A model generated the notes under the pieces. That model was given only the letters and a program-made list of their open reading frames with translations. It did no database searches and was not told the DNA's origin. A DNA stretch of 64,000 nt from Lentisphaeria bacterium. Its GTDB lineage: Bacteria; Verrucomicrobiota; Lentisphaeria; Victivallales; UBA1829. This document shows, piece after piece, positions 4,208 through 43,782 of this stretch (position 1 is its first letter; the number at the start of each line of letters is the position of its first letter). The stretch lies in NCBI GenBank assembly GCA_017455665.1, contig JAFSZN010000050.1:183-64182 (forward strand). Direction: 5' to 3'. The position numbers were made by a program, and so were the translations under genes.

Positions 4208-5965
4208 ATGAGCGACAAACCGCTGCCGGACCTGACCCAACCGAAAAGCAAATGGAGCGTCGGCACGCTGACGTACACCGCCGCCGGACTCGCCGTGCTG
4301 TTCGCCCTGCTGCTGTGGGGCGATTTCGCGTGGTCGATGAAGGACCGCGTGGTCTTCCCGATGACCGTGAAGCTGGCGAAGGAACGGTTCGAGCTGAACG
4401 ACACGCTGTATTCCATCCTGATCATTTCGTTCCCGAATTTCACGAACATCTTCCTGATGCCGATCGTGAGCTATCTTTCCGACCGGCACCGCGGCCGCCT
4501 GGGACGCCGCATCCCGTTCCTGCTGTTCACCACGCCGTTCATCGTGGTCGGGTTGCTCGGCATCGGCCTGAACGCGGAGATCGGCGGCGTGATCGAAAAG
4601 ATCACGTCGATGAACGCGCGCACGGCGGCGCTGGTGGCGTTCTGCGTCTTCTGGGTGCTGTTCGACTTCGGCAACACGCTGGCGTCGGCGATCTTCAACG
4701 CCCTCGTGAACGACGTGGTGCCGCAGCGCATCATCGGGCGTTTCTTCAGCCTCTTCCGCATCATCAGCCTGCTGGCGGGCATCCTGTACAACTACTATCT
4801 CTTCGAGCACGCGCTTGACTGGTTCAAGTGGATATTCCTCGTGCTCGGCGCGCGGTATGCCGCGGGACTGTATTCCATGTGCTTCTTCGTGAAGGAAGGC
4901 AAGTATCCGCCGCCGGAGGAGATCCCGGCGGACAAGAGCAAGTTCCAGCGTGTCTTCGGCGCGTTCATCGACTATTTCCGGCAGTGCTTCTCCGTGCCGT
5001 ACTACCGCTGGATCATCGTCGCGCTCCTGCTGGCGAACATCAGCTTCCACCCCATCAACGACTTTTCCATCCAGTACGCCAAGGCGATCGGCGTGCCGGA
5101 CAGCACCTACGGTCAACTGCTCGCGATCACGTACTGTTTCTCCATCGTGCTGAGCTATCCGCTGGGCGCTCTGGCGGACCGGTTCCATCCGATCCGGACC
5201 AGTTTCGTCTCCCTCGCGGCGTACGCGGTCCTGATGCTCGTCGGCTGGCTGGTCGTCAACAATCCCTGGCAGAAGGAGATCACCTACTACATCCCCGGCC
5301 TCATGGCCGACCCGAAGAAGCTCGTCCTGTCCTCCTTCGCGATCGTGTTCATCATTCACGGCGTGGTGTCCGGGTGCTTCTTCACGCTGTCCAGTTCGCT
5401 GCCGCTGCGTCTCTTCCCCGGTTCGATCTTCGCGCAGTTCGCCTCGGCGAACGCCATGATCCTGGCGCTCGGCACCACGGTCATCGTCCCGGCGTTCGGG
5501 TTCTTCCTGGACGTGCAGGACAGCAATTACGACCTGCTGTTCGTGCTCGGCGCGATCCTGTCGCTAATCTCCGCGGTCGCATTCGTGAAGATCCATTTCT
5601 ACTACAAGCGTTTCGGTGGCGACGAGAACTACATCGCGCCTGACGTGATGACGCGCGAGAATATCCGGAAGGCAGGCGACAAGTTCCGGACGTTCATCAT
5701 CCCCGGCGCGGTCGCGGGCATCATCGCCGGATGCCTGTTCGGATACTGGTTCGAAGGTCCGGCGATCCGCGCGGAATACGGCTTCGGCGCATTCTACGGG
5801 CATTTCGTCGACATCATGTTCCGGCAGGCGGCGGACGCGAAGCCGCTTTTGGCGTATCTGCTTTCGGTCGTGACGTTCGGTCTGGTCGGGTTCTTCCTCG
5901 GCGCGCTGATCCCGAACAAGCGCCGTCCTGTGAAACGCGCTTCGGACGAGGCGGAAGCCGCCTGA
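4208..5965 (+). CDS. MFS-type transporter (GPH/SLC45-like)
   Basis: Track ORF starts at 4133. The ATG at 4208 is preceded by AAGGAG (4193-4198). Multiple hydrophobic helices and the loop motif DRHRGRLGRRIPF, typical of MFS loop 2-3. Confidence 0.7.
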   Translation: MSDKPLPDLTQPKSKWSVGTLTYTAAGLAVLFALLLWGDFAWSMKDRVVFPMTVKLAKERFELNDTLYSILIISFPNFTNIFLMPIVSYLSDRHRGRLGRRIPFLLFTTPFIVVGLLGIGLNAEIGGVIEKITSMNARTAALVAFCVFWVLFDFGNTLASAIFNALVNDVVPQRIIGRFFSLFRIISLLAGILYNYYLFEHALDWFKWIFLVLGARYAAGLYSMCFFVKEGKYPPPEEIPADKSKFQRVFGAFIDYFRQCFSVPYYRWIIVALLLANISFHPINDFSIQYAKAIGVPDSTYGQLLAITYCFSIVLSYPLGALADRFHPIRTSFVSLAAYAVLMLVGWLVVNNPWQKEITYYIPGLMADPKKLVLSSFAIVFIIHGVVSGCFFTLSSSLPLRLFPGSIFAQFASANAMILALGTTVIVPAFGFFLDVQDSNYDLLFVLGAILSLISAVAFVKIHFYYKRFGGDENYIAPDVMTRENIRKAGDKFRTFIIPGAVAGIIAGCLFGYWFEGPAIRAEYGFGAFYGHFVDIMFRQAADAKPLLAYLLSVVTFGLVGFFLGALIPNKRRPVKRASDEAEAA

Positions 5966-27296: not shown

Positions 27297-27344
27297 CCCG
27301 ATGGCGGCTTGTTTTCCCGTGTTTCCGGTGTATATTAATATCAC

Positions 27345-27440
27345 ACCACGGGGTGCTGGGCTATGCGTCATCCGATGCGCGGCCCGGCTGAGATCATACC
27401 CGCACAACCTGATCCGGATAATGCCGGCGTAGGAAATCGA
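27345..27440 (+). promoter_or_regulatory. TPP (THI-box) riboswitch
   Basis: ACCACGGGGTGCTGGG...GGCTGAGATCATACCCGCACAACCTGATCCGGATAATGCCGGCGTAGGAA contains the conserved GGGGTGC, CTGAGA, ACCC and ACCTGATCCGGATAATGCCGGCG blocks. A CTTTCC/GGAAAG hairpin and a T-run follow; thi4 starts about 75 nt downstream. Confidence 0.85.
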
Positions 27441-27515
27441 CAGCGTCATCCTTTCCGATGGAAAGCCGCCCGCGTTTTCTGCGAAACCATCAACCCAACG
27501 AAAGGACAGACAGCC

Positions 27516-28316
27516 ATGTCGGACTCCTCCTCCCAGGTCATCGAAACGACCATCTCCCGCGCCATCGTCGAAAACTTCTCGGCGAAACTCCTCGACAACC
27601 TCACCGTCGACGTCGCCATCGTCGGCGCCGGCCCGTCCGCGCTCGTCGCGGCGCACTACCTCGCGAAAGCCGGCATCCGCACGGCCATCTTCGAACGCAA
27701 GCTCGCGCCCGGCGGCGGCACGTGGGGCGGCGGCATGCTCTTCAACGAAGTCGTCGTGCAGGACGCCTCGCTCGAGATCCTCGACGAATTCGGCATCAAA
27801 CACAAGCCCATCCCCGGCGCGCCCGGCTACAACACCCTCGATTCCGTCGAAATGGCGAGCGGCCTCATCTTCGGCGCGGTCAGCGCCGGCGCGAAGATAT
27901 TCAACGCCGTCAGCGTCGAGGACATCGTGTTCCGCGGCGAACAGGTCGGCGGCCTCGTCATCAACTGGACGCCCGTCGAACGCCTCGGCATGCACGTGGA
28001 TCCGCTGACCGTGATCTCGCAGTGCGTGCTGGACGGCACCGGCCACCCGAGCGAGATCATGCACCTCGCGGTCGAAAAGGCGCAGCTGAAGCTCGCCACC
28101 AGCACCGGCGGCATCCTCGGCGAAAAGCCCATGTGGGTCGACAGCGGCGAAGCATCCACCGTCGAAAACACCCGCGAATACTTCCCCGGACTCTTCGCCT
28201 GCGGCATGAGCGCGAACAACGTCATGGGCGGATACCGCATGGGCCCGATCTTCGGCGGCATGATGCTCTCCGGACGCAAGGCCGCGGACCTCATCCGCAA
28301 AAGACTCGGGAAGTGA
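27516..28316 (+). CDS. thi4: Thi4-family thiazole synthase (His-type, probably sulfide-dependent)
   Basis: Track ORF is over-extended through the riboswitch; the ATG at 27516 gives [18 protein letters not shown] motif [13 protein letters not shown] and [21 protein letters not shown] has His where I recall the yeast suicide Cys. Confidence 0.85.
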
Positions 28317-28320
28317 CCCG

Positions 28321-28980
28321 ATGCCGCGCCGCGTCTACACCACCCTGAACGAGCGCGTCGAAGCGTTCCGGCGCACGGACGTGTACCCCGTCGTCACGTC
28401 CGAATTCTGCGCCGGACGCAGCCCCGTCGACGTCGCCGCGTCGCTTCTGGCGGGCGGCGTCCGCCTCATGCAGATCCGCGAAAAGACCATGCCCGACCGC
28501 CCGTTCCTCGAGCTCCTGCGGCAGGTCCGCGAGCTCACATGGGACTATGGCGCGCTGCTGATCGTGGACGACCGCGTGGACGCCGCGCTGATCGCGCAGG
28601 CGGACGGCGTGCATCTGGGACAGGAGGATATCCCGCTCCCGGACGCCCGCCGCATCGCCCCGGACCTGCTGATCGGCGTCTCCACGCACAATGCCGACGA
28701 GATACGGCAGGCGCAGTACGAGGGATGTTCCTACCTCAACATCGGCCCGATCTTCCCCACGAAGACCAAACAGCTCGCATGCACGTTCCTCGGCTTGGAA
28801 CAGCTCCGCATGCTGGCGCCGCTCGTGCGCGTGCCGTTCTCCGTGATGGGCGGCATCAAATATGAACACCTCGCGGAACTCAAATCCGCCGGGGCGGGGC
28901 GCATCGCCGCCGTGACAGCCTTCACACAGGCGCCCGATCCCGGCGCGGAAGCCGCCCGCTGGCGCAAAGAACTGCACTGA
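28321..28980 (+). CDS. thiE: Thiamine-phosphate synthase
   Basis: 219 aa with LIVDDRVDAAL, GVHLGQEDIP and a C-terminal MGGI block. Confidence 0.9.
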   Translation: MPRRVYTTLNERVEAFRRTDVYPVVTSEFCAGRSPVDVAASLLAGGVRLMQIREKTMPDRPFLELLRQVRELTWDYGALLIVDDRVDAALIAQADGVHLGQEDIPLPDARRIAPDLLIGVSTHNADEIRQAQYEGCSYLNIGPIFPTKTKQLACTFLGLEQLRMLAPLVRVPFSVMGGIKYEHLAELKSAGAGRIAAVTAFTQAPDPGAEAARWRKELH

Positions 28981-34435: not shown

Positions 34436-35434
34436 TTACGGAAAGAATCCGCGCCATTCGCGCCATTTCGTTTCATTCATTTCCCATTCGCAGTACACCG
34501 CGATGCCGCGGATGTCCTCCCCCGGAGCCGCTGCCGAAATTCCCCTCAATGCCGAAATAATGTTTTCCACGCGCGGATGATGATACCCCACGCCGGCGTC
34601 CTCGTAGGCGGGGATCCCCAGCAGCAGATCGCATCCGGTCGAACGCAGGGACTCCGTCAGCTGAACCGTCCAGCGGGTCATCAGGCCGATGTAGCATTTT
34701 TCCAGCGGGATGGCGGTATCGTACATCATCACGGCCACCTGGTCGCAGCGGGCGGCGACGCTGCGCAGATACCCGGGACTCCAGTGAACATCCGGGAACC
34801 GATGCCATGCCGTCGGAGGCGGATACGCCGCCACGCTCAGTGTTTTGCGGGGGATCGCCGCGCGCAATTCATCCAGCAGCGTCAGAAAGTCCGTGTTCCC
34901 GTCCGGCATCGGCTCGATATTGACCTGAACGCCTGCGAGCCGGGGATGCGCGTTCAGAAGTTCCGATATGGAATCGACAAAACGCTTGCGCCACTCCCCG
35001 TCGGCAGGGCAGGCGGATTCGCCGAAGACGCCGCCCACCCACGGGATGACACGGATGCCGGACTGCCCGGCAAGATCGAGAAACCGTTCGGTCTGTTCAT
35101 GGTCGCAGCGCGCGATCGATCCGTCGGGCCGCGCCGGACACAGGTGCGGATAGACGATCGAAATCTTGTTGTCGGCAAGCCGACGGAAAAGCGCCGCGAT
35201 CTTCGATTCGCTGCGGAAGTCCGCACGATCAGCCTGTTTGCGCTCGAACCAGGCGTCGTCGCCGAGCCATCCGTGCCCGATCCAGATCGCGTTGTCGGAG
35301 TAATCGGGCAGGGGGGTGTCGCAGCCCGGATCCCAGAGCAGATAGCAGAGCGCCGCTCCGCCGAGGATCACGGTCAGGAGAAAGACGATCCGCAGCAGAC
35401 TTTTCCCGAACTTTTGGAACAGAACGTGTTTCAT
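34436..35434 (-). CDS. Membrane-anchored hypothetical protein, TIM-barrel glycosyl-hydrolase-like
   Basis: Track ORF is extended to 35533. The ATG at 35434 gives MKHVLFQKFGKSLLRIVFLLTVILGGAALCYLLW (anchor). The alternating beta/alpha pattern (IVYPHL, VIPWVGG, VQVNIEP, VAAYPP, VMMYDT) suggests a (beta/alpha)8 fold. Family not identified. Confidence 0.55.
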   Translation of the reverse strand: MKHVLFQKFGKSLLRIVFLLTVILGGAALCYLLWDPGCDTPLPDYSDNAIWIGHGWLGDDAWFERKQADRADFRSESKIAALFRRLADNKISIVYPHLCPARPDGSIARCDHEQTERFLDLAGQSGIRVIPWVGGVFGESACPADGEWRKRFVDSISELLNAHPRLAGVQVNIEPMPDGNTDFLTLLDELRAAIPRKTLSVAAYPPPTAWHRFPDVHWSPGYLRSVAARCDQVAVMMYDTAIPLEKCYIGLMTRWTVQLTESLRSTGCDLLLGIPAYEDAGVGYHHPRVENIISALRGISAAAPGEDIRGIAVYCEWEMNETKWREWRGFFP

Positions 35435-35756
35435 CGTTTGCTTGATTGTTTGCTTGACGGCATGATTTGCGAGGGAAACGGATGCTTCCTTGTGCTCGAA
35501 CAACTTGATGCGGCGGCAGATTGTCGAGCGCAACGAGTATTCCGAATTTTGAATACTATATCACGCTTTCTGCCGTTGTCAAGCCGGATTCAAGCCGGAT
35601 TCCGGAAAACAACATCTTGTCCTTTTGTCTCATTATGGACATATATATGTGTGTATCACCAATCAGGGCAGGGGGACACACACATGTATTATAAATCAGG
35701 ACAGGGGGCAAGTATAAAATAGTACGACAAATGATAATATACTCTTCGCCCCAATC

Positions 35757-35857
35757 TTTTGAAATGCGCGCCTCGCGGTAACGAAAAGAATAGACGCGTG
35801 CATCAGGCACGCTTACCTAGGCTTGCAAACAGCAAGCCCCCGGACGCAAAAGAATCC
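35757..35857 (+). repeat. DFR unit L1 (type A)
   Basis: GCGCGCCTCGCGGT box, hp1 GCGTGC-ATCAG-GCACGC and hp2 GGCTTGC-AAACA-GCAAGCC. hp3 is degraded (GGACGCAAAAGAATCC). A T-run and then GGGTAGGG at 35876 follow. Confidence 0.85.
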
Positions 35858-35931
35858 TTTCATTTTTTTTCTTTAGGGTAGGGGGCAAATACAGATTCGC
35901 CATCCTACTGTCAACCAATTATTTATAAATC

Positions 35932-36025
35932 TTTGCCGTTCGCGTCTCGCGGTCAAATAAAACTTATCAAGCTCAAGCGAGTATTCCGAGGCGAGCGGAT
36001 GCGAGCCCCCGGACGCATCGCGTCC
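35932..36025 (+). repeat. DFR unit L2 (type B)
   Basis: TTGCCGTTCGCGTCTCGCGGT box, a CAAGCGAGTATTCC segment, a degenerate hp2 and hp3 GGACGC-ATC-GCGTCC followed by TTATTCTTTTT. Confidence 0.85.
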
Positions 36026-36102
36026 TTATTCTTTTTGGATCAGGGCCGGGAGTAAAGTTTTATTTATCTGTTTCATTGATTCTTGTTCACATTCCCATTC
36101 CC

Positions 36103-36199
36103 TTGTTGTTCGCGTCTCGCGGTATCGTGAAAAAACATATCGAGCGCAGAGAATTTTCCGAGGCTTGCGAACAGCAAGCCCCCGGACGCGAACGCGTCC
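36103..36199 (+). repeat. DFR unit L3 (type B)
   Basis: TTGTTGTTCGCGTCTCGCGGT box, a TCGAGCGCAGAGAATTTTCC segment, hp2 GGCTTGC-GAACA-GCAAGCC and hp3 GGACGC-GAAC-GCGTCC. Confidence 0.85.
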
Positions 36200-36339
36200 A
36201 AAAAAGTCGAGCGTAGCGAGCATTCCGAGGCTCGCGAAAGCAAGCCCCTCGAACGCATCGCATCAAAACAAATAAAATCAGGGCAGGGGGGCAAGTATAA
36301 AATAGTACGACAAATGATAATATACTCTTCGCCCCAATC

Positions 36340-36440
36340 TTTTGAAATGCGCGCCTCGCGGTAACGAAAAGAATAGATGCGTGCATCAGGCACGCTTACC
36401 GAGGCTTGCGAACAACAAGCCCCCGGACGCGAACGCGTCC
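36340..36440 (+). repeat. DFR unit L4 (type A)
   Basis: Near-identical to L1 but with all three hairpins intact. Part of the 157-nt duplication 35692-35848 / 36274-36430. Confidence 0.9.
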
Positions 36441-36570
36441 AAATACATTTTTTCTTTCGGGCAGGGGTCAGATATGCTTTCCCATCTTCCTCCTCCTATA
36501 TTTGCCGTCGCGTCTCGCGGAAAATATATCGAAGGGCAGAGGAGAAATAATAATCTATTTTCCAGAATAT

Positions 36571-36666
36571 TTGAAATGCGCGCCTCGCGGTCAAATAAGA
36601 CATGTGTCGAGCACAGTGAGTATTCCTAGGCTTGCGAACAGCAAGCCCCCCGGACGCATCGCGTCC
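36571..36666 (+). repeat. DFR unit L6 (type B)
   Basis: GCGCGCCTCGCGGT box, a TCGAGCACAGTGAGTATTCC segment, hp2 GGCTTGC-GAACA-GCAAGCC and hp3 GGACGC-ATC-GCGTCC. Confidence 0.85.
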
Positions 36667-36917
36667 AAATCTATCATAACGTCAGCCACACAAAAAAACT
36701 CAATCTTTCTTCATTTCATCTTTTTGTTTGTGGCATGAAAAAACAACGGCTTCATATCCATAGAGCAGGGCGATGTTACGCTTTTTCCGTCACATGGACG
36801 CACTCAGAAAATCTCCTCTTCTTCCCAGGCGATTTAAGCGCATGATAACGACCGATACAGCTCTTCATCCGTCTCTGATTTATCCCCGTGTTAAATGGGC
36901 TTTGCGGCCCATTTATA

Positions 36918-36945
36918 ACGTCGCATAATATATATTATGTTAAAT
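36918..36945 (+). other. dif-like XerC/XerD chromosome-dimer resolution site
   Basis: ACGTCGCATAA-TATATA-TTATGTTAAAT versus E. coli dif GGTGCGCATAA-TGTATA-TTATGTTAAAT. The XerD arm matches 11/11, the inner 7 nt of the XerC arm are identical, and the spacer matches 5/6. Lies in an AT-rich ORF-poor gap. A 9-bp-stem hairpin (36892-36915, TAAATGGGC/GCCCATTTA) abuts it. Confidence 0.75.
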
Positions 36946-37665
36946 CGAGTACGCTCAAAAGGGCGAACCAAGACATTTATATTGTCCTATAGACAAATGG
37001 ATTGCGGCGTGTGTACAATCCGATTGTCAACAACTTTTTAACAACTTTTGACAATTGACATCATTTTGGACCACAGCCCTGGAAAAACGGTCATCGGTTC
37101 CAAAGCAGTTTCGAGACAACAAAAAATATTTCGTTAATGGGTCGAAGGAACTTGATAGATTTGTTTTCATCATCGTGATTCGGACCGCCCATGTGTTGCC
37201 GAACGGGAAAGAACTTTTTTCGTCGAACATTCTGAATTTGGTCCATTTTTCACGGGCAGGGCATGGCAAAAGCCGTTTTTACCCCCTCGCCTGAGGTCAT
37301 TTTTTTTAGAAGGTGAGAACGATGAAAATTTTTGGGGTCTTTGGGGAGGTTGTCACGAGTTCGGTCTTGTTCGATTTTTTGATGTTTTGGATATAATATT
37401 CTCTGAAAACATGCCAATCTTTTCAAAACATCTTGTGTGTCCAAATGGGGGGGCGTTTACTTTCGGAATAGGGGCTGAGGAGAATTTGCGTCTGATGTTT
37501 TGAGCTCACTTTACTCCCCTACCCTATTGAAAAAGAGACATGTAGATACAAAATATGCCTTTTATCTTCTGCCAGGAAGAAGGAATAAATCAATAGTTTC
37601 TTTTCTTGTGTTTCTGTTTCATAATCCAATGCAGAATGATTACTTGTATTTCGAACAATCTTTTT

Positions 37666-37765
37666 GGACGCATTTGCGTCCGGGGGGCTTGCATTCGCAA
37701 GCCTCGGTAAGCGTGCCTGATGCACGCATCTTTTTTTTATTAACGCGAGACGCGCGAATCAAAAG
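37666..37765 (-). repeat. DFR unit R1 (type A, inverted)
   Basis: Reading the + strand: GGACGC-ATTT-GCGTCC, then GGCTTGC-ATTC-GCAAGCC, then GCGTGC-CTGAT-GCACGC, then ATCTTTTTTTTATT, then AACGCGAGACGCGCG. Confidence 0.9.
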
Positions 37766-37928
37766 GGTGGAGATATTCTTAGGTCGTATACTGTTTGATG
37801 ACGTTATACTTCTTTTCTTGTTACCGCGAGACGCGCAATGCTGAGTAGCGGGAAGAAACAGTGCGTTCATACAGAGCAGACAGCGAATCCATAATCCTAT
37901 GCCCCCTGCCCTAAATTTGACCAAATCA

Positions 37929-38027
37929 GGACGCATTCGCGTCCGGGGGGCTTGCATTCGCAAGCCTCGGTAAGCGTGCCTGATGCACGCATCTTATTTT
38001 CCCATTACCGCGAGACGCGAACGGCAA
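37929..38027 (-). repeat. DFR unit R3 (type A, inverted)
   Basis: Same three hairpins, followed by TACCGCGAGACGCGAACGGCAA, the exact reverse complement of the L2 box TTGCCGTTCGCGTCTCGCGGT. Confidence 0.9.
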
Positions 38028-38532
38028 TTTAAAAGTTAAACATTTCTTCTCACAAGATACAACAATGCAATGAAGGATTACAGGTGACCGCGAGACGCGA
38101 TAAACAAAGTCCTTTTGTGAACTCCCCGGAGACGAGAAATAATAGAAAAGGTTCAGGTTACCGCGAGACGCGCAAGTCAAATTATTCTTTAAAAGTAAGA
38201 TGTGTTTTTTGACAGACCATACAACTGACTTATCCGTTTTTGTTTCGTCTTTCGCCTTCATTAATCTTCAGTACAAAATAGCCTGACAAAGAAAGATCGA
38301 ACGGGGATTCATCCTATGTCTTTCAAGACCTCTTTGAATGATTCCGTGCGAACGGGTGACGGGTCCAGTTCACGTCGTCACCGGGGCGGGGAATCGGGGC
38401 ACAATGAATATTATTATCGTTTTTTGAACTCAAAATACCCCGCCGCCCCTGTCGTATATCGGATTTTTCCGCAAAAAAACAGATCGACTCTTGTTTTTTT
38501 GATTAAGATGGGGTATAATAATTATAAATCTC

Positions 38533-39246
38533 ATGTCTTGTCGCCTCGACTGGAGGATGCCGTCCGTGTACAAAACCGTTTTTTACAATGAAGACGATAA
38601 TATCCGTCTGACCAGGTATTGGTCATCCAAAGACGGGAAACTGATCCTGGATATCCACTCCGTCGGCGCGGAAGAGTATCCCGGACCGAAAGGCAATATC
38701 CAGTTCGATGCCGGGGTATGGTTCGCATACAACGTCTTCGACCGGGACGGACGCATCAAAGTGTCCTATGAGGCGGATGAACCGGACGACCGTTATCCCG
38801 ATGCGTACTGGAGTGTCAATGTGACTTATTTTTACGGCTTTACGGACGAAACGGTCCTGAAAAGCTGTTTCCGGATCCTCATGGACCGGGATTTCCGGAT
38901 CACGAAACGGACCATGGAAGACCTCGAGCTGCGCGATCTGGACGGTCTCCATGTCTTTTACGGGAAACGCCCGAAGTTCCTGCAGCGATACCGGGACGGG
39001 AAAAAGACCGGCGCCAACAGGTATTGTGACGACAAGCGGCTGCAGCAGTTCATCGAAATCGACCATGCCGATTACGCCGGACCGATCGACGTCTCCAGCC
39101 GCGGCTGCCGCAGGATCGAATGCGACGATGCGTTCAAATCGAAGCTTCTCAAATTCGACCGGCTGGTCTTTTATATCAAAAAGGTTTTTCTTGATCCGAC
39201 CTCCAAGTATTATCAAACGCCCCCTGCCCCGGAGAACGGAAAATGA
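38533..39246 (+). CDS. Hypothetical protein, possibly YwqK/MORN-like repeats
   Basis: 237 aa; an alternative start exists at 38557. Gly/Tyr-punctuated beta-hairpin-like repeats (FYGKRPKFLQRYRDGKKTGANRYCDDKRLQQFIEI). Ends with the tail YYQTPPAPENGK shared with the two downstream paralogues. Confidence 0.5.
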   Translation: MSCRLDWRMPSVYKTVFYNEDDNIRLTRYWSSKDGKLILDIHSVGAEEYPGPKGNIQFDAGVWFAYNVFDRDGRIKVSYEADEPDDRYPDAYWSVNVTYFYGFTDETVLKSCFRILMDRDFRITKRTMEDLELRDLDGLHVFYGKRPKFLQRYRDGKKTGANRYCDDKRLQQFIEIDHADYAGPIDVSSRGCRRIECDDAFKSKLLKFDRLVFYIKKVFLDPTSKYYQTPPAPENGK

Positions 39247-43662: not shown

Positions 43663-43782
43663 AGCCTGTATACATAAAAAGCCCGTAGAAAGCATTTACG
43701 GCTTTCCACGGACTGTTGTGGCAACCTGATTCCTTGTGCCCGAGCGAAGCCGGGCACTGCCGCAGTGGAGGCGTTCGCCTCC

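Follow-up and report, generated by a model that had tools for sequence, protein, structure and literature searches.

The dif locus and its non-coding gap

The window analyzed in this work is a stretch of 64,000 nt from an uncultured rumen bacterium, Lentisphaeria bacterium GCA_017455665.1 (contig JAFSZN010000050.1, positions 183-64,182, forward strand), and all coordinates are given as positions in this window. A non-coding gap of 3.1 kb (35434-38532) houses a dif site and two arrays of a repeated composite unit, one on each side of dif. Table 1 lists the features. A first-pass annotation of this DNA had seen no convincing CDS in the gap, and none of the ORFs inside 35434-38532 had a Pfam match. 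The left flanking gene is preceded by a promoter-like site (TTGACA-16-TATAGT, 35582-35555) and is missing from the same position in two related loci, L001 and L004. The product of the right flanking gene contains no known domain, and its AF2 model is unusable (pLDDT 39.7).

The 28-bp dif has the 11-6-11 layout, with two partly palindromic arms and a 6-bp centre. Of its 28 positions, 23 match E. coli dif (sequence from PMC3025954), and the XerD arm matches throughout. Allowing as many as 3 mismatches revealed no second dif-like site in the window. The 20-bp core pattern ATAA-N6-TTATGTTAA occurs once per locus in the nine dif-bearing loci compared and the core is identical across them; the 28-mer is near-identical in relatives where it was read, with variable flanks. 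GC skew over the 64 kb was uninformative. The site lies exactly where the KOPS-type motif described below changes strand. Judged by its uniqueness, the conserved core and this strand switch, it is very probably the functional dif, as the first-pass annotation had called it. On the XerD side, the conserved dif-proximal block consists of an inverted repeat, ATTGTCAA...TTGACAAT, around two 11-bp tandem repeats (CAAYAACTTTT).

Table 1. Positions of the flanking genes, dif, repeat units and individual KOPS-class motifs in the window
Feature	Position	Strand	Remarks
Left flanking gene, GH18/TIM-barrel-like	34436-35434	-	Transcribed away from dif
Outermost partial copy	35522-35543	+	Type-B fragment TGTCGAGCGCAACGAGTATTCC; repeat family D9
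Two tandem 33-nt mini-repeats	35661-35711	+	Repeat family D11; mini-repeat also in L010
Unit L1, full	35756-35859	+	With box; GCGTGC/GCACGC and GGCTTGC/GCAAGCC hairpins, third hairpin decayed
Unit L2, full	35931-36029	+	With box; first hairpin decayed (type B) and second broken, GGACGC-ATC-GCGTCC intact
Unit L3, full	36101-36203	+	Box, type B, two core hairpins intact; covariance model 79.4 bits
Unit L4, partial	36208-36264	+	Decayed, without box; followed by KOPS GGGCAGGG at 36281
Unit L5, full, type A	36339-36444	+	Followed by KOPS GGGCAGGG at 36459
L6, box-only copy	36509-36520	+	Exact box match
Unit L7, full, type B	36568-36670	+	Innermost copy, XerC-arm side
dif	36918-36945	+	XerC arm ACGTCGCATAA, centre TATATA, XerD arm TTATGTTAAAT
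Conserved dif-proximal block	37024-37057	+	XerD side; found in every lineage
Anti-oriented GGGCAGGG, single	37254-37261	+	XerD-arm side
KOPS variant GGGTAGGG	37517-37524	-	Directed to dif
Unit R1, full, type A	37663-37765	-	Reverse-complemented; box 37743-37754 with one mismatch
Box-only copy	37824-37835	-	Box search and nhmmer profile
KOPS GGGCAGGG of unit R2	37904-37911	-	Directed to dif
Unit R2, full, type A	37925-38029	-	Reverse-complemented
Box-only copy	38088-38099	-	Exact box match; conserved flank TCACCTGTAATCC
Box-only copy, outermost right	38161-38172	-	Box search and nhmmer profile
Right flanking gene, 237 aa (229 aa from ATG 38557)	38533-39246	+	Transcribed away from dif

Composite units and KOPS-class motifs

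Each unit consists, in order, of a box (CGCG-N3-CGCGG), an A-rich spacer, up to three GC-rich hairpin-capable palindromes, an A/T stretch and often the 8-mer GGGCAGGG. The repeat finder and sequence reading together gave 7 full and 6 partial copies in the gap, the same count as in the first-pass annotation, and none in the remaining 61 kb of the window. All copies left of dif are on the + strand and all copies right of it on the - strand, so the mirror-image orientation described earlier applies to every copy in the gap; the distances of 252 bp from the left array to dif and 721 bp from the right array were also confirmed. Exact matches to the box CGCGYCTCGCGG lie on the + strand at 35767, 35941, 36111, 36350, 36509 and 36579 and on the - strand at 37824, 38008, 38088 and 38161, with no exact match elsewhere in the 64 kb; a further - strand box at 37743 carries one mismatch, giving six boxes left and five right of dif. 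With up to 1 mismatch allowed there are 21 matches in the 64 kb against 4.8 expected, a number reached by 0 of 100 shuffles. The box itself is a small palindrome (CGCG-N3-CGCG), which adds to the earlier description, and copies reduced to the box, as had been claimed, are present at 36509, 37824, 38088 and 38161. An nhmmer profile built from seven copies matched only within 35756-38182 of the window (six matches on + in the left array and four on - in the right one), and a covariance model of the two core hairpins gave eight matches with E<1e-5, all within 35814-37972, and just two weak ones outside that range (E 0.037 and 0.3).

Traces of local duplication are visible. Unit L5 lies inside a 188-nt duplicate (36287-36474; repeat family D2, 90% identity) of the stretch 35704-35891 around L1. 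Unit R1 is orthologous to positions 527-632 of locus L004. Within the mini-repeats at 35661-35711 there is a KOPS, GGGCAGGG at 35666, alongside a decayed one, GGACAGGG; the variant GGGTAGGG follows unit L1 at 35876.

The palindromes keep their stems and vary in their loops (3 to 5 nt), as had been noted from the sequence. The second hairpin changes from GGCTTGC/GCAAGCC to GGCTCGC/GCGAGCC and to GGCGGC/GCCGCC, the position of the first is occupied by three unrelated stems, and many decayed hairpin copies are present. The type-B segment, previously taken for a separate module, is a decayed GAACTCG/CGAGTTC hairpin that is intact in relatives. As single-stranded DNA, units of the window fold with z = -3.6 and -5.5; units of divergent lineages fold no better than shuffles (z = -1.45 and -0.45). 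A covariance-model check for compensatory changes, proposed in the first-pass annotation, found slight covariation: only 2 of 13 pairs changed on both sides (5 cells), with 95.4% of cells paired. G.T wobbles amount to about three events per strand and favour neither strand.

KOPS are directional FtsK loading sites of the form GGGNAGGG that are oriented from origin to terminus (PMC2680272). The G-rich end of the unit, GGGCAGGG or in a few cases GGGTAGGG, has this octamer form. GGGCAGGG thus belongs to the KOPS class, and by analogy with known KOPS it would be bound by FtsK. Its polarity is 18:2 in the whole window; with the arrays excluded it is 14:1 (p about 0.001), and there GGGCAGG was the most polar of 3160 6- and 7-mers tested. 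The origin-to-dif strand bias holds on both arms. In the pooled loci the polarity of GGGCAGGG more than 1.5 kb from dif is 60:3, and one anti-oriented GGGCAGGG lies within 1.5 kb of dif in all nine dif loci. This polarity outside the arrays, with a strand switch exactly at dif, supports both the dif call and the KOPS part of the hypothesis that the arrays orient FtsK. The arrays raise the density of dif-directed KOPS beside dif; in the pooled loci dif-directed GGGCAGGG occurs at 1.66 per kb near dif and 0.54 per kb farther out, an enrichment of only about 3-fold above an already dense background.

KOPS and the E. coli dif activity zone offer a close parallel: sites of the same 8-mer class point at dif from both arms, change strand precisely there and become more frequent as dif is approached. 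E. coli has only 2 GGGCAGGG within 10 kb of dif (PMC2680272), whereas 4-6 lie within 1.5 kb here, and unlike E. coli KOPS those near dif are embedded in a longer repeat whose box and palindromes are unexplained by KOPS biology. Many units lack a KOPS (L2, L3, L7 and R1 in the window, and all seven tandem units of locus L012), so KOPS alone cannot be the reason that the unit exists. The earlier proposal of an FtsK-orienting array therefore stands for the AGGGCAGGGGG part, a GGGNAGGG KOPS, and leaves the box and the hairpins unexplained.

Conservation and distribution of the layout

The layout was found again in at least eight related rumen Lentisphaeria genomes. In eight distinct dif loci 40 of 40 units are directed to dif and none away from it, and boxes in the pooled loci are polar at 38:1, the lone exception being a chance match in coding DNA. 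Arrays are present on both sides of dif in nearly every genome. Copy number and flanking genes vary among the genomes, and the layout is therefore maintained rather than merely frozen. In the most divergent lineage (L002/L027) mirrored units were found without a canonical dif between them.

A scan for the two-hairpin core in one genome for each of 185,579 species returned four contigs, one per MAG. Every contig comes from a rumen MAG; two carry Lentisphaerae/Lentisphaeria in their titles, and three of the four have the same dif core. No unit was found in 91 kb of non-dif Lentisphaeria loci, and the layout was not found in the viral, phage and plasmid collections. The first-pass annotation had asked whether copies are confined to the dif neighbourhood and always point to dif, and had named a generic REP or MITE scattered without relation to dif as the result that would count against it; in the window and its relatives confinement and orientation both hold, and no such scatter was seen in the window, the species scan or the 91 kb of other loci, with the reservation that the confinement to dif is judged from incomplete assemblies, all genomes being MAGs or metagenome contigs. 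Nothing in the units, on reading, suggested a RAYT transposase or terminal inverted repeats with target-site duplications.

In all lineages examined (the window, L001-L005, L009, L010, L012, L013, L015 and L018), the box and the last hairpin (GGACGC-N3-4-GCGTCC) have one and the same sequence; the remaining hairpins have been exchanged, altered with compensation or lost, and the spacers are unalignable. The flanking protein is only 79-82% identical across lineages in which box and last palindrome are identical. Type A and type B are exchanged at orthologous positions between close relatives.

Several known elements share part of this description. REP/BIME elements are GC-rich imperfect intergenic palindromes with kept stems and free loops, often in composite clusters, and the hairpin-forming imperfect palindromes of the unit are of this kind; REPs are scattered over hundreds of intergenic regions, whereas the present family occupies one locus per genome and comes with an asymmetric box and KOPS. 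Like matS/MatP in enterics and ZapT in Caulobacter, the sites are short palindromic or protein-bound sequences marking the terminus region. The matS consensus is GTGACRNYGTCAC, and GGACGC-N3-GCGTCC has the same 13-15-bp palindrome-with-spacer format. The ZapT sites of Caulobacter have no defined motif (PMC7188993). Both matS and ZapT are spread over hundreds of kilobases without polarity; here the sites have polarity, stand in tandem and keep to within 1.5 kb of dif. Lactobacillus chromosomes likewise have mirror-image sequence at the terminus of replication, as large single inverted repeats of 38-76 kb, compared with arrays of a unit of about 100-200 bp here (PMC5345009). Searched against Rfam 15 at the gathering threshold, and with the cutoff relaxed to E = 10, the unit matched no family, and we found no prior description of mirror-image composite arrays around dif in the literature searched, in line with the earlier remark that no element with this layout had been described.

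A possible polar terminus array and competing explanations

We tentatively favor the explanation, at somewhat less than an even chance, that the array is a lineage-specific cis-acting DNA mark of the chromosome terminus that combines FtsK-orienting motifs with putative factor sites. The composite unit would have been amplified locally on both sides of dif, with each copy kept in the orientation directed to dif. The stacked KOPS would steer FtsK loaded within the last 1-2 kb onto XerCD-dif, and the box and the invariant palindrome would be recognition sites of a terminus-specific DNA-binding factor, working either as duplex DNA or as extruded hairpins. The units would thus act as DNA rather than as separate RNA genes. 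A translocase that reads the array as it travels along the DNA may be what maintains the strict polarity; FtsK has the best support for this role, with the replisome, RecBCD/AddAB or SMC as further possibilities. No candidate for the binding factor turned up among the neighbouring genes, which encode no DNA-binding domain and are not conserved as neighbours in all genomes. The polarity could also be passive: copies made by tandem duplication share an orientation, and a single inversion spanning dif would produce the mirror image, which leaves few independent orientation events.

The main rival is a replication fork trap, in which a putative terminator protein would recognise the asymmetric box as a Ter-like site, perhaps with the invariant palindrome as part of it. 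Forks could then enter the dif zone and not leave it, so that termination would be pinned within about 1.5 kb of dif. Multiple asymmetric sites, set in opposite orientation to either side of the terminus, are the defining geometry of Tus/Ter in Enterobacteria and RTP/Ter in Bacillus subtilis (including the adjacent opposed IRI/IRII). There too dif lies between the opposed clusters, and fork traps arose convergently at least twice (PMC10331603). The 6 + and 5 - boxes of the window and the 38:1 ratio of the pooled loci reproduce this geometry, the box is strictly conserved in sequence, and box-only copies retain their polarity; a polar protein-binding box fits these observations. The resemblance considered here is one of site layout. 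In known fork traps a Ter site is located in the promoter of the terminator gene (PMC10331603), but no tus or rtp homologue adjoins the arrays: the flanking genes have GH18-like, Sel1, FGE-sulfatase or no domains and zero Tus/RTP matches, and there is no conserved neighbouring regulator gene. A cognate terminator protein encoded away from the arrays is possible. The sites also lie within about 1.5 kb on each side, compared with tens to hundreds of kilobases in fork traps, and are associated with hairpin-capable palindromes, to which known fork traps give no part. Linkage to KOPS accounts equally well for the polarity. We consider a fork trap unlikely.

Likewise improbable, in our estimate, is a selfish or neutral origin. 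A terminator-like or REP-like palindromic cassette would have been amplified by unequal crossing-over in a recombination-prone, gene-poor terminus and moved across dif by symmetric inversion, the box and hairpins having no function of their own and the copies being tolerated only in the orientation that keeps the embedded KOPS permissive. Fast turnover of copy number and cassette composition between close relatives (the type-A to type-B swap), the many decayed copies, weak covariation and tandem duplications such as the 188-nt pair all agree with this. Neutral repeats would drift between lineages, however, and the box and last palindrome do not differ from one lineage to the next; both sides of dif retain arrays in nearly every genome, and no copy has spread to another intergenic region of the window or of the 91 kb of non-dif loci.

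We regard multi-copy small RNA genes, another first-pass suggestion, as quite improbable. Each unit would specify a three-hairpin RNA of about 100 nt which, read away from dif, starts at the C-rich KOPS complement and ends with the GCGTGC hairpin and a U-run. As RNA, the hairpins fold well whichever strand is read, the linkers between them are conserved, promoter-like hexamers precede a few copies, and type-A copies show a terminator-like hairpin and T-run when read away from dif. Such tails are found only on the type-A copies of this lineage and are absent from type-B copies and from the L013/L015/L018 lineages, and no promoter has a fixed position across copies in either direction. Variable loops combined with sequence-conserved stems are the reverse of most structured RNAs, and the scarcity of compensatory change, the balance of wobbles between strands and the lack of an Rfam family leave this suggestion weakly supported at best.

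It is very unlikely that the polar box is a Chi-like or other repair signal that halts RecBCD/AddAB degradation from terminus breaks. Its orientation, + left and - right, is the one read by an enzyme leaving a break at dif, and two E. coli studies document breaks centred on dif (PMC5638614, PMC5862497), but Chi sites occur genome-wide, and outside the arrays sub-words of the box show no over-representation and no co-orientation with replication (TCGCGG 45:71 and CGCGG 217:268, both opposite to the Chi-like direction). The earlier suggestion of scars from repeated Xer-dependent IMEX insertions, which the position beside dif and the repeated modules had favored, is close to refuted: there is a single dif with no additional dif-like attachment site or XerD-arm half-site even with mismatches allowed, no similarity to viral contigs, phages or plasmids was found, and one-sided insertion at dif does not give mirror-oriented copies on both sides.

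Beyond a lineage-specific mark of the terminus, the box and the invariant palindrome might, with low probability, be the cis sites of a new terminus system, either a third independent fork trap or a polar "dif-zone insulator". If so, fork fusion and FtsK/Xer activity would be confined to about 3 kb around dif in these bacteria, by hairpin-capable sites in place of Tus- or RTP-type Ter sites.

The dif site and the polarity of KOPS

The site proposed as dif in the first-pass annotation shares 23 of its 28 positions with E. coli dif (PMC3025954), the XerD arm being identical throughout, and it is an ordinary dif. GC skew across the 64 kb is uninformative, so the evidence for polarity rests on KOPS. 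The G-rich octamer of the repeat unit, GGGCAGGG, fits the E. coli KOPS consensus GGGNAGGG (PMC2680272). Left of dif all of its occurrences in the window lie on the plus strand, and right of dif all but two lie on the minus strand (18 vs 2). With the arrays masked the count is 14 vs 1 (p about 0.001), and GGGCAGG is then the most polar among 3160 6- and 7-mers tested. All related loci show the strand switch at dif, and for KOPS more than 1.5 kb from dif the pooled loci give 60 vs 3. This switch validates the dif call, and the convergence of KOPS on the site indicates a terminus, not an origin. At the level of sequence, a unique and conserved dif at the KOPS polarity switch is demonstrated. Judged by motif and by polarity, both of which were tested and hold, the KOPS component of the unit belongs to the known class. 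Up to 1.5 kb from dif, dif-directed KOPS have a density of 1.66 per kb, vs 0.54 per kb farther out; in E. coli only two GGGCAGGG are present within 10 kb of dif (PMC2680272). In an 8-mer screen of the whole window, TCCGCCGA showed a polarity around dif equal to that of GGGCAGGG (18:2), for which either coding-strand bias or a second polar signal may account.

Exactly one anti-oriented GGGNAGGG is found within 1.5 kb of dif in nine of nine dif loci, always on the XerD-arm side. It is 310-430 bp away from dif in one clade; in the other the separation is about 700-940 bp, and the site falls within the 226-aa gene's promoter region. To find a non-permissive KOPS this near dif was unexpected. Also on the XerD side, 85-125 bp from dif, is a block conserved in every lineage examined, in which an 8-bp inverted repeat surrounds two tandem 11-bp repeats; it looks like a putative protein-binding or bending site. 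On the other side, a 51-aa ORF ending in the TAA of the dif XerC arm was considered as a gene and taken as non-coding: the whole ORF is kept in the related loci L003 and L005, but L001 and L004 lack its start. On this side of dif, conservation at the DNA level covers about 110 bp. One relative only (L015) has a 38-nt repeat between the left array and dif.

Features of the terminus region (window coordinates unless a related locus, L-number, is named)
Feature	Position	Strand	Description
Non-coding gap	35434-38532		3.1 kb; ~45% G+C vs ~60% G+C for the window
Left flanking gene		-	GH18-like; transcribed away from the gap
Right flanking gene	38533-39246	+	237 aa (229 aa in shorter form); transcribed away from the gap
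dif	36918-36945		ACGTCGCATAA-TATATA-TTATGTTAAAT; unique in the window with three mismatches allowed
Exact box CGCGYCTCGCGG, left	35767-36590	+	six copies
Exact box CGCGYCTCGCGG, right	37824-38172	-	four copies
Box, one mismatch	37743	-	
Seven-copy profile	35756-38182	+ on left, - on right	all ten matches
Covariance model, two core hairpins	35814-37972		all eight strong matches
Weak covariance-model match	43767-43782	-	third-hairpin palindrome; E 0.037; 6.8 kb from dif; probably chance
Tandem repeat, 33-nt period	35661-35711		ATCAGGGCAGGGGG + ACACACACATGTATTATAA; counterpart in L010 at about 590-720
51-aa ORF	36773-36928	+	taken as non-coding
Inverted-repeat block	37024-37057		ATTGTCAA...TTGACAAT around two CAAYAACTTTT
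Anti-oriented GGGNAGGG	37254-37261	+	
Anti-oriented GGGNAGGG, relatives	L003 3008; L004 1031; L005 869; L013 9828; L015 9829; L018 7907		
38-nt repeat	L015 8838-8935		CTTCGCCGTTGCGTTTTGCCGGCACCATCTTT...; three tandem copies
Right-flank paralogues	L015 10001-12056; L016 484-2539; L018 8088-9457		two or three in tandem
Degenerate dif-like site	L002 ~5521-5549		ATACAAAATAA-GAGTAAA-TTATGTTGCAA; same in L027, L029
TPP riboswitch	27339-27453	+	Rfam RF00059, 57.5 bits; immediately upstream of ORF 27458-28348

Confinement of the repeat arrays to dif

The repeat families described from the sequence were recovered by a repeat finder, and the arrays and their coordinates were reproduced by box search, profile and covariance model as well; the tally of seven full and six partial copies and the distances of 252 and 721 bp between arrays and dif also stand. 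No exact box occurs elsewhere in the 64 kb, and with up to one mismatch the window holds 21 matches vs 4.8 expected. A second, simpler KOPS-bearing tandem repeat borders the left array on its outer side. The description of the gap as free of a convincing CDS agrees with the lack of Pfam matches among its short ORFs. An exact database look-up returned no record for the left flanking protein, and an NCBIfam search of the genes adjoining the arrays gave nothing. The right-flank protein (226-237 aa) belongs to no Pfam or NCBIfam family, and the AF2 model of its 229-aa form, considered as a candidate binding protein, is unusable (pLDDT 39.7); no partner protein emerged from the analysis of the neighbouring genes. 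This protein is present as tandem paralogues (~20% identity) in several relatives and is absent beside dif in L003.

A scan of 185,579 species, each represented by a single genome, with the two-hairpin core found four contigs, all from rumen MAGs, two titled Lentisphaerae/Lentisphaeria and two "uncultured bacterium"; in three of the four an identical dif core lies beside or between the copies. Four further short contigs with genuine arrays (L005, L009, L010, and L012) came from a metagenome scan, while its pattern matches in L006, L007, L008, and L011 contain one hairpin only, are matched by nhmmer in no case, and are due to chance. More contigs were reached in NCBI, ENA, and Logan via homologues of the right-flank protein (75-97% identity), and each has the order KOPS(+), units(+), dif, units(-) with extra box-only repeats, KOPS(-). 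The comparison genomes are all MAGs or metagenome contigs of one lineage, mostly from rumen where the source is known. At eight distinct dif loci 40 units are directed at dif vs 0 away, and boxes are directed at dif by 38 to 1, the exception being a match by chance within coding sequence. Lentisphaeria loci away from dif, 91 kb in all, served as a negative control and contained no unit, box or palindrome. The layout thus recurs in relatives, and the expectation that copies are confined to dif and point toward it is borne out. Comparison of these sequences establishes a terminus-restricted, strictly dif-directed repeat family with embedded KOPS. Copy numbers and flanking genes vary between genomes, L001 has an array on one side of dif only, and where the window has a type-A cassette, L004 has one of type B at the orthologous position. 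Polarity and location are thus retained although the content of the arrays turns over.

Conservation is less certain beyond this lineage. The short contig L012 carries a divergent array of seven copies and no dif. In L002, from a more distant Lentisphaeria lineage, mirrored units surround an AT-rich centre in which no canonical dif was found; a dif-like sequence with a 7-nt centre and an altered XerD arm, on which the flanking genes converge, is possibly a degenerate dif site, and GGGNAGGG is absent from this locus. Orthologous kinase loci in other genomes (L021-L026), found via the kinase flanking the L002 array, have no arrays and so act as negative controls; L027-L030 are of L002's species and add no phylogenetic depth.

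Anatomy of the unit

Comparison of 34 distinct units gave the ancestral order: TTG-N5-6, box CGCG-N3-CGCGG(T), A-rich spacer, hairpin 1, ACCRAGG linker, hairpin 2, CCC, a GCGAAGC mini-hairpin in some lineages, hairpin 3 (GGACGC-N3-4-GCGTCC), an A/T stretch, and often KOPS followed by about 25 conserved bases. The box arms, with a centre of always 3 nt, and the hairpin 3 arms are invariant across the sampled lineages. Hairpin 2 is GGCTTGC/GCAAGCC in most copies, GGCTCGC/GCGAGCC in L010 and L018, and GGCGGC/GCCGCC in L012; the mini-hairpin takes its place in L013, in L015, and in the right-hand array of L018. No fewer than three unrelated stems occur as hairpin 1 (GCGTGC/GCACGC, GAACTCG/CGAGTTC, and CGGAGC/GTTCCG). 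Of the two forms in the first-pass annotation, the type-A GCGTGC hairpin stands, and unit comparison resolves type B as a decayed GAACTCG hairpin. Loops vary from 3 to 5 nt, which argues against rigid duplex-DNA dimer sites at hairpins 2 and 3 and favours hairpins that may be extruded or single-stranded; for the box, whose 3-bp centre is fixed, a duplex protein site seems the likelier form. A Chi-like role of the box found no support from k-mer/word skew.

Compensatory change was counted on a covariance-model alignment of 36 distinct sequences, which replaced a MAFFT whole-unit alignment in which hairpin 2 was misaligned and hence missed by RNAalifold. The proposed pairing holds in 95.4% of cells, but change on both sides is seen in only two of 13 pairs (5 cells), and hairpin 3 is invariant. 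Folded as single-stranded DNA, the window units are far more stable than shuffles (z = -3.6 and -5.5), whereas units from divergent lineages are not (z = -1.45 and -0.45). With covariation and folding this modest, sequence conservation of box and hairpin 3 is the strongest signal and hairpin capacity the second. The conservation pattern demonstrates purifying selection on the 12-bp box and the 15-16-bp palindrome.

Possible roles of the arrays

We read the arrays, at a likelihood somewhat short of even, as DNA acting in cis. FtsK loading in the last 1-2 kb would be driven into XerCD-dif by the stacked permissive KOPS, a putative terminus factor would bind box and palindrome, and polarity would be retained because a translocase reads the array. 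Of the two main rivals, a functionless local repeat tolerated only in the KOPS-permissive orientation is unlikely: the mirror image needs only tandem duplication and one inversion across dif, but this leaves unexplained the identical box and palindrome in lineages whose spacers are unalignable. The other, a Ter-like polar fork barrier, has the right array geometry but is rather improbable; no Tus/RTP-like gene was found nearby. With no terminator protein found, the arrays are not filed as Ter/Tus or Ter/RTP sites. Separate sRNA genes are decidedly unlikely. Type-A copies read away from dif do end in GCGTGC-CTGAT-GCACGC and a T-run, a plausible terminator, and fair promoter-like hexamers precede the C-rich KOPS complement in two copies, but neither type-B copies nor the lineages L013, L015, and L018 have these features, and no promoter-like sequence keeps a fixed distance across copies. 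Reading toward dif, the hairpins are followed by A-runs, not T-runs; G.T wobbles number about three per strand, RNA folding is about equal for both strands, and the unit has no Rfam match. Scars of IMEX insertions are essentially excluded, since dif is single in the window and nothing unit-like was found among viral contigs or phage and plasmid collections.

The arrays also differ from other described repeats. REP/BIME elements are dispersed and the composite box-hairpin arrays are not, so they are not REP/BIME; nor are they of the matS/ZapT type, whose sites lack polarity and are distributed across hundreds of kilobases (PMC7188993), while these are polar and at dif. The 38-76-kb inverted repeats at the Lactobacillus terminus (PMC5345009) are likewise not of this kind. 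In the literature on repeats around dif we found no description of box-hairpin arrays, and none for Lentisphaerae.

To our knowledge, a mechanism fixing the place where bacterial replication ends is known only for enterics and a few Bacillus species. Here, compact, strictly polar and conserved cis elements lie against dif in an uncultured PVC-group lineage, which bears on the way FtsK, Xer, topoisomerases, and the division septum deal with the last kilobases next to dif. Defined sequences are offered: the 12-bp box, the 15-16-bp palindrome, and KOPS. We see a small chance that the arrays form the cis part of a new system for termination or insulation. If they only concentrate KOPS, they would be an extreme natural form of the E. 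coli dif activity zone; should a polar barrier protein bind the box, they would be a new solution for replication termination.
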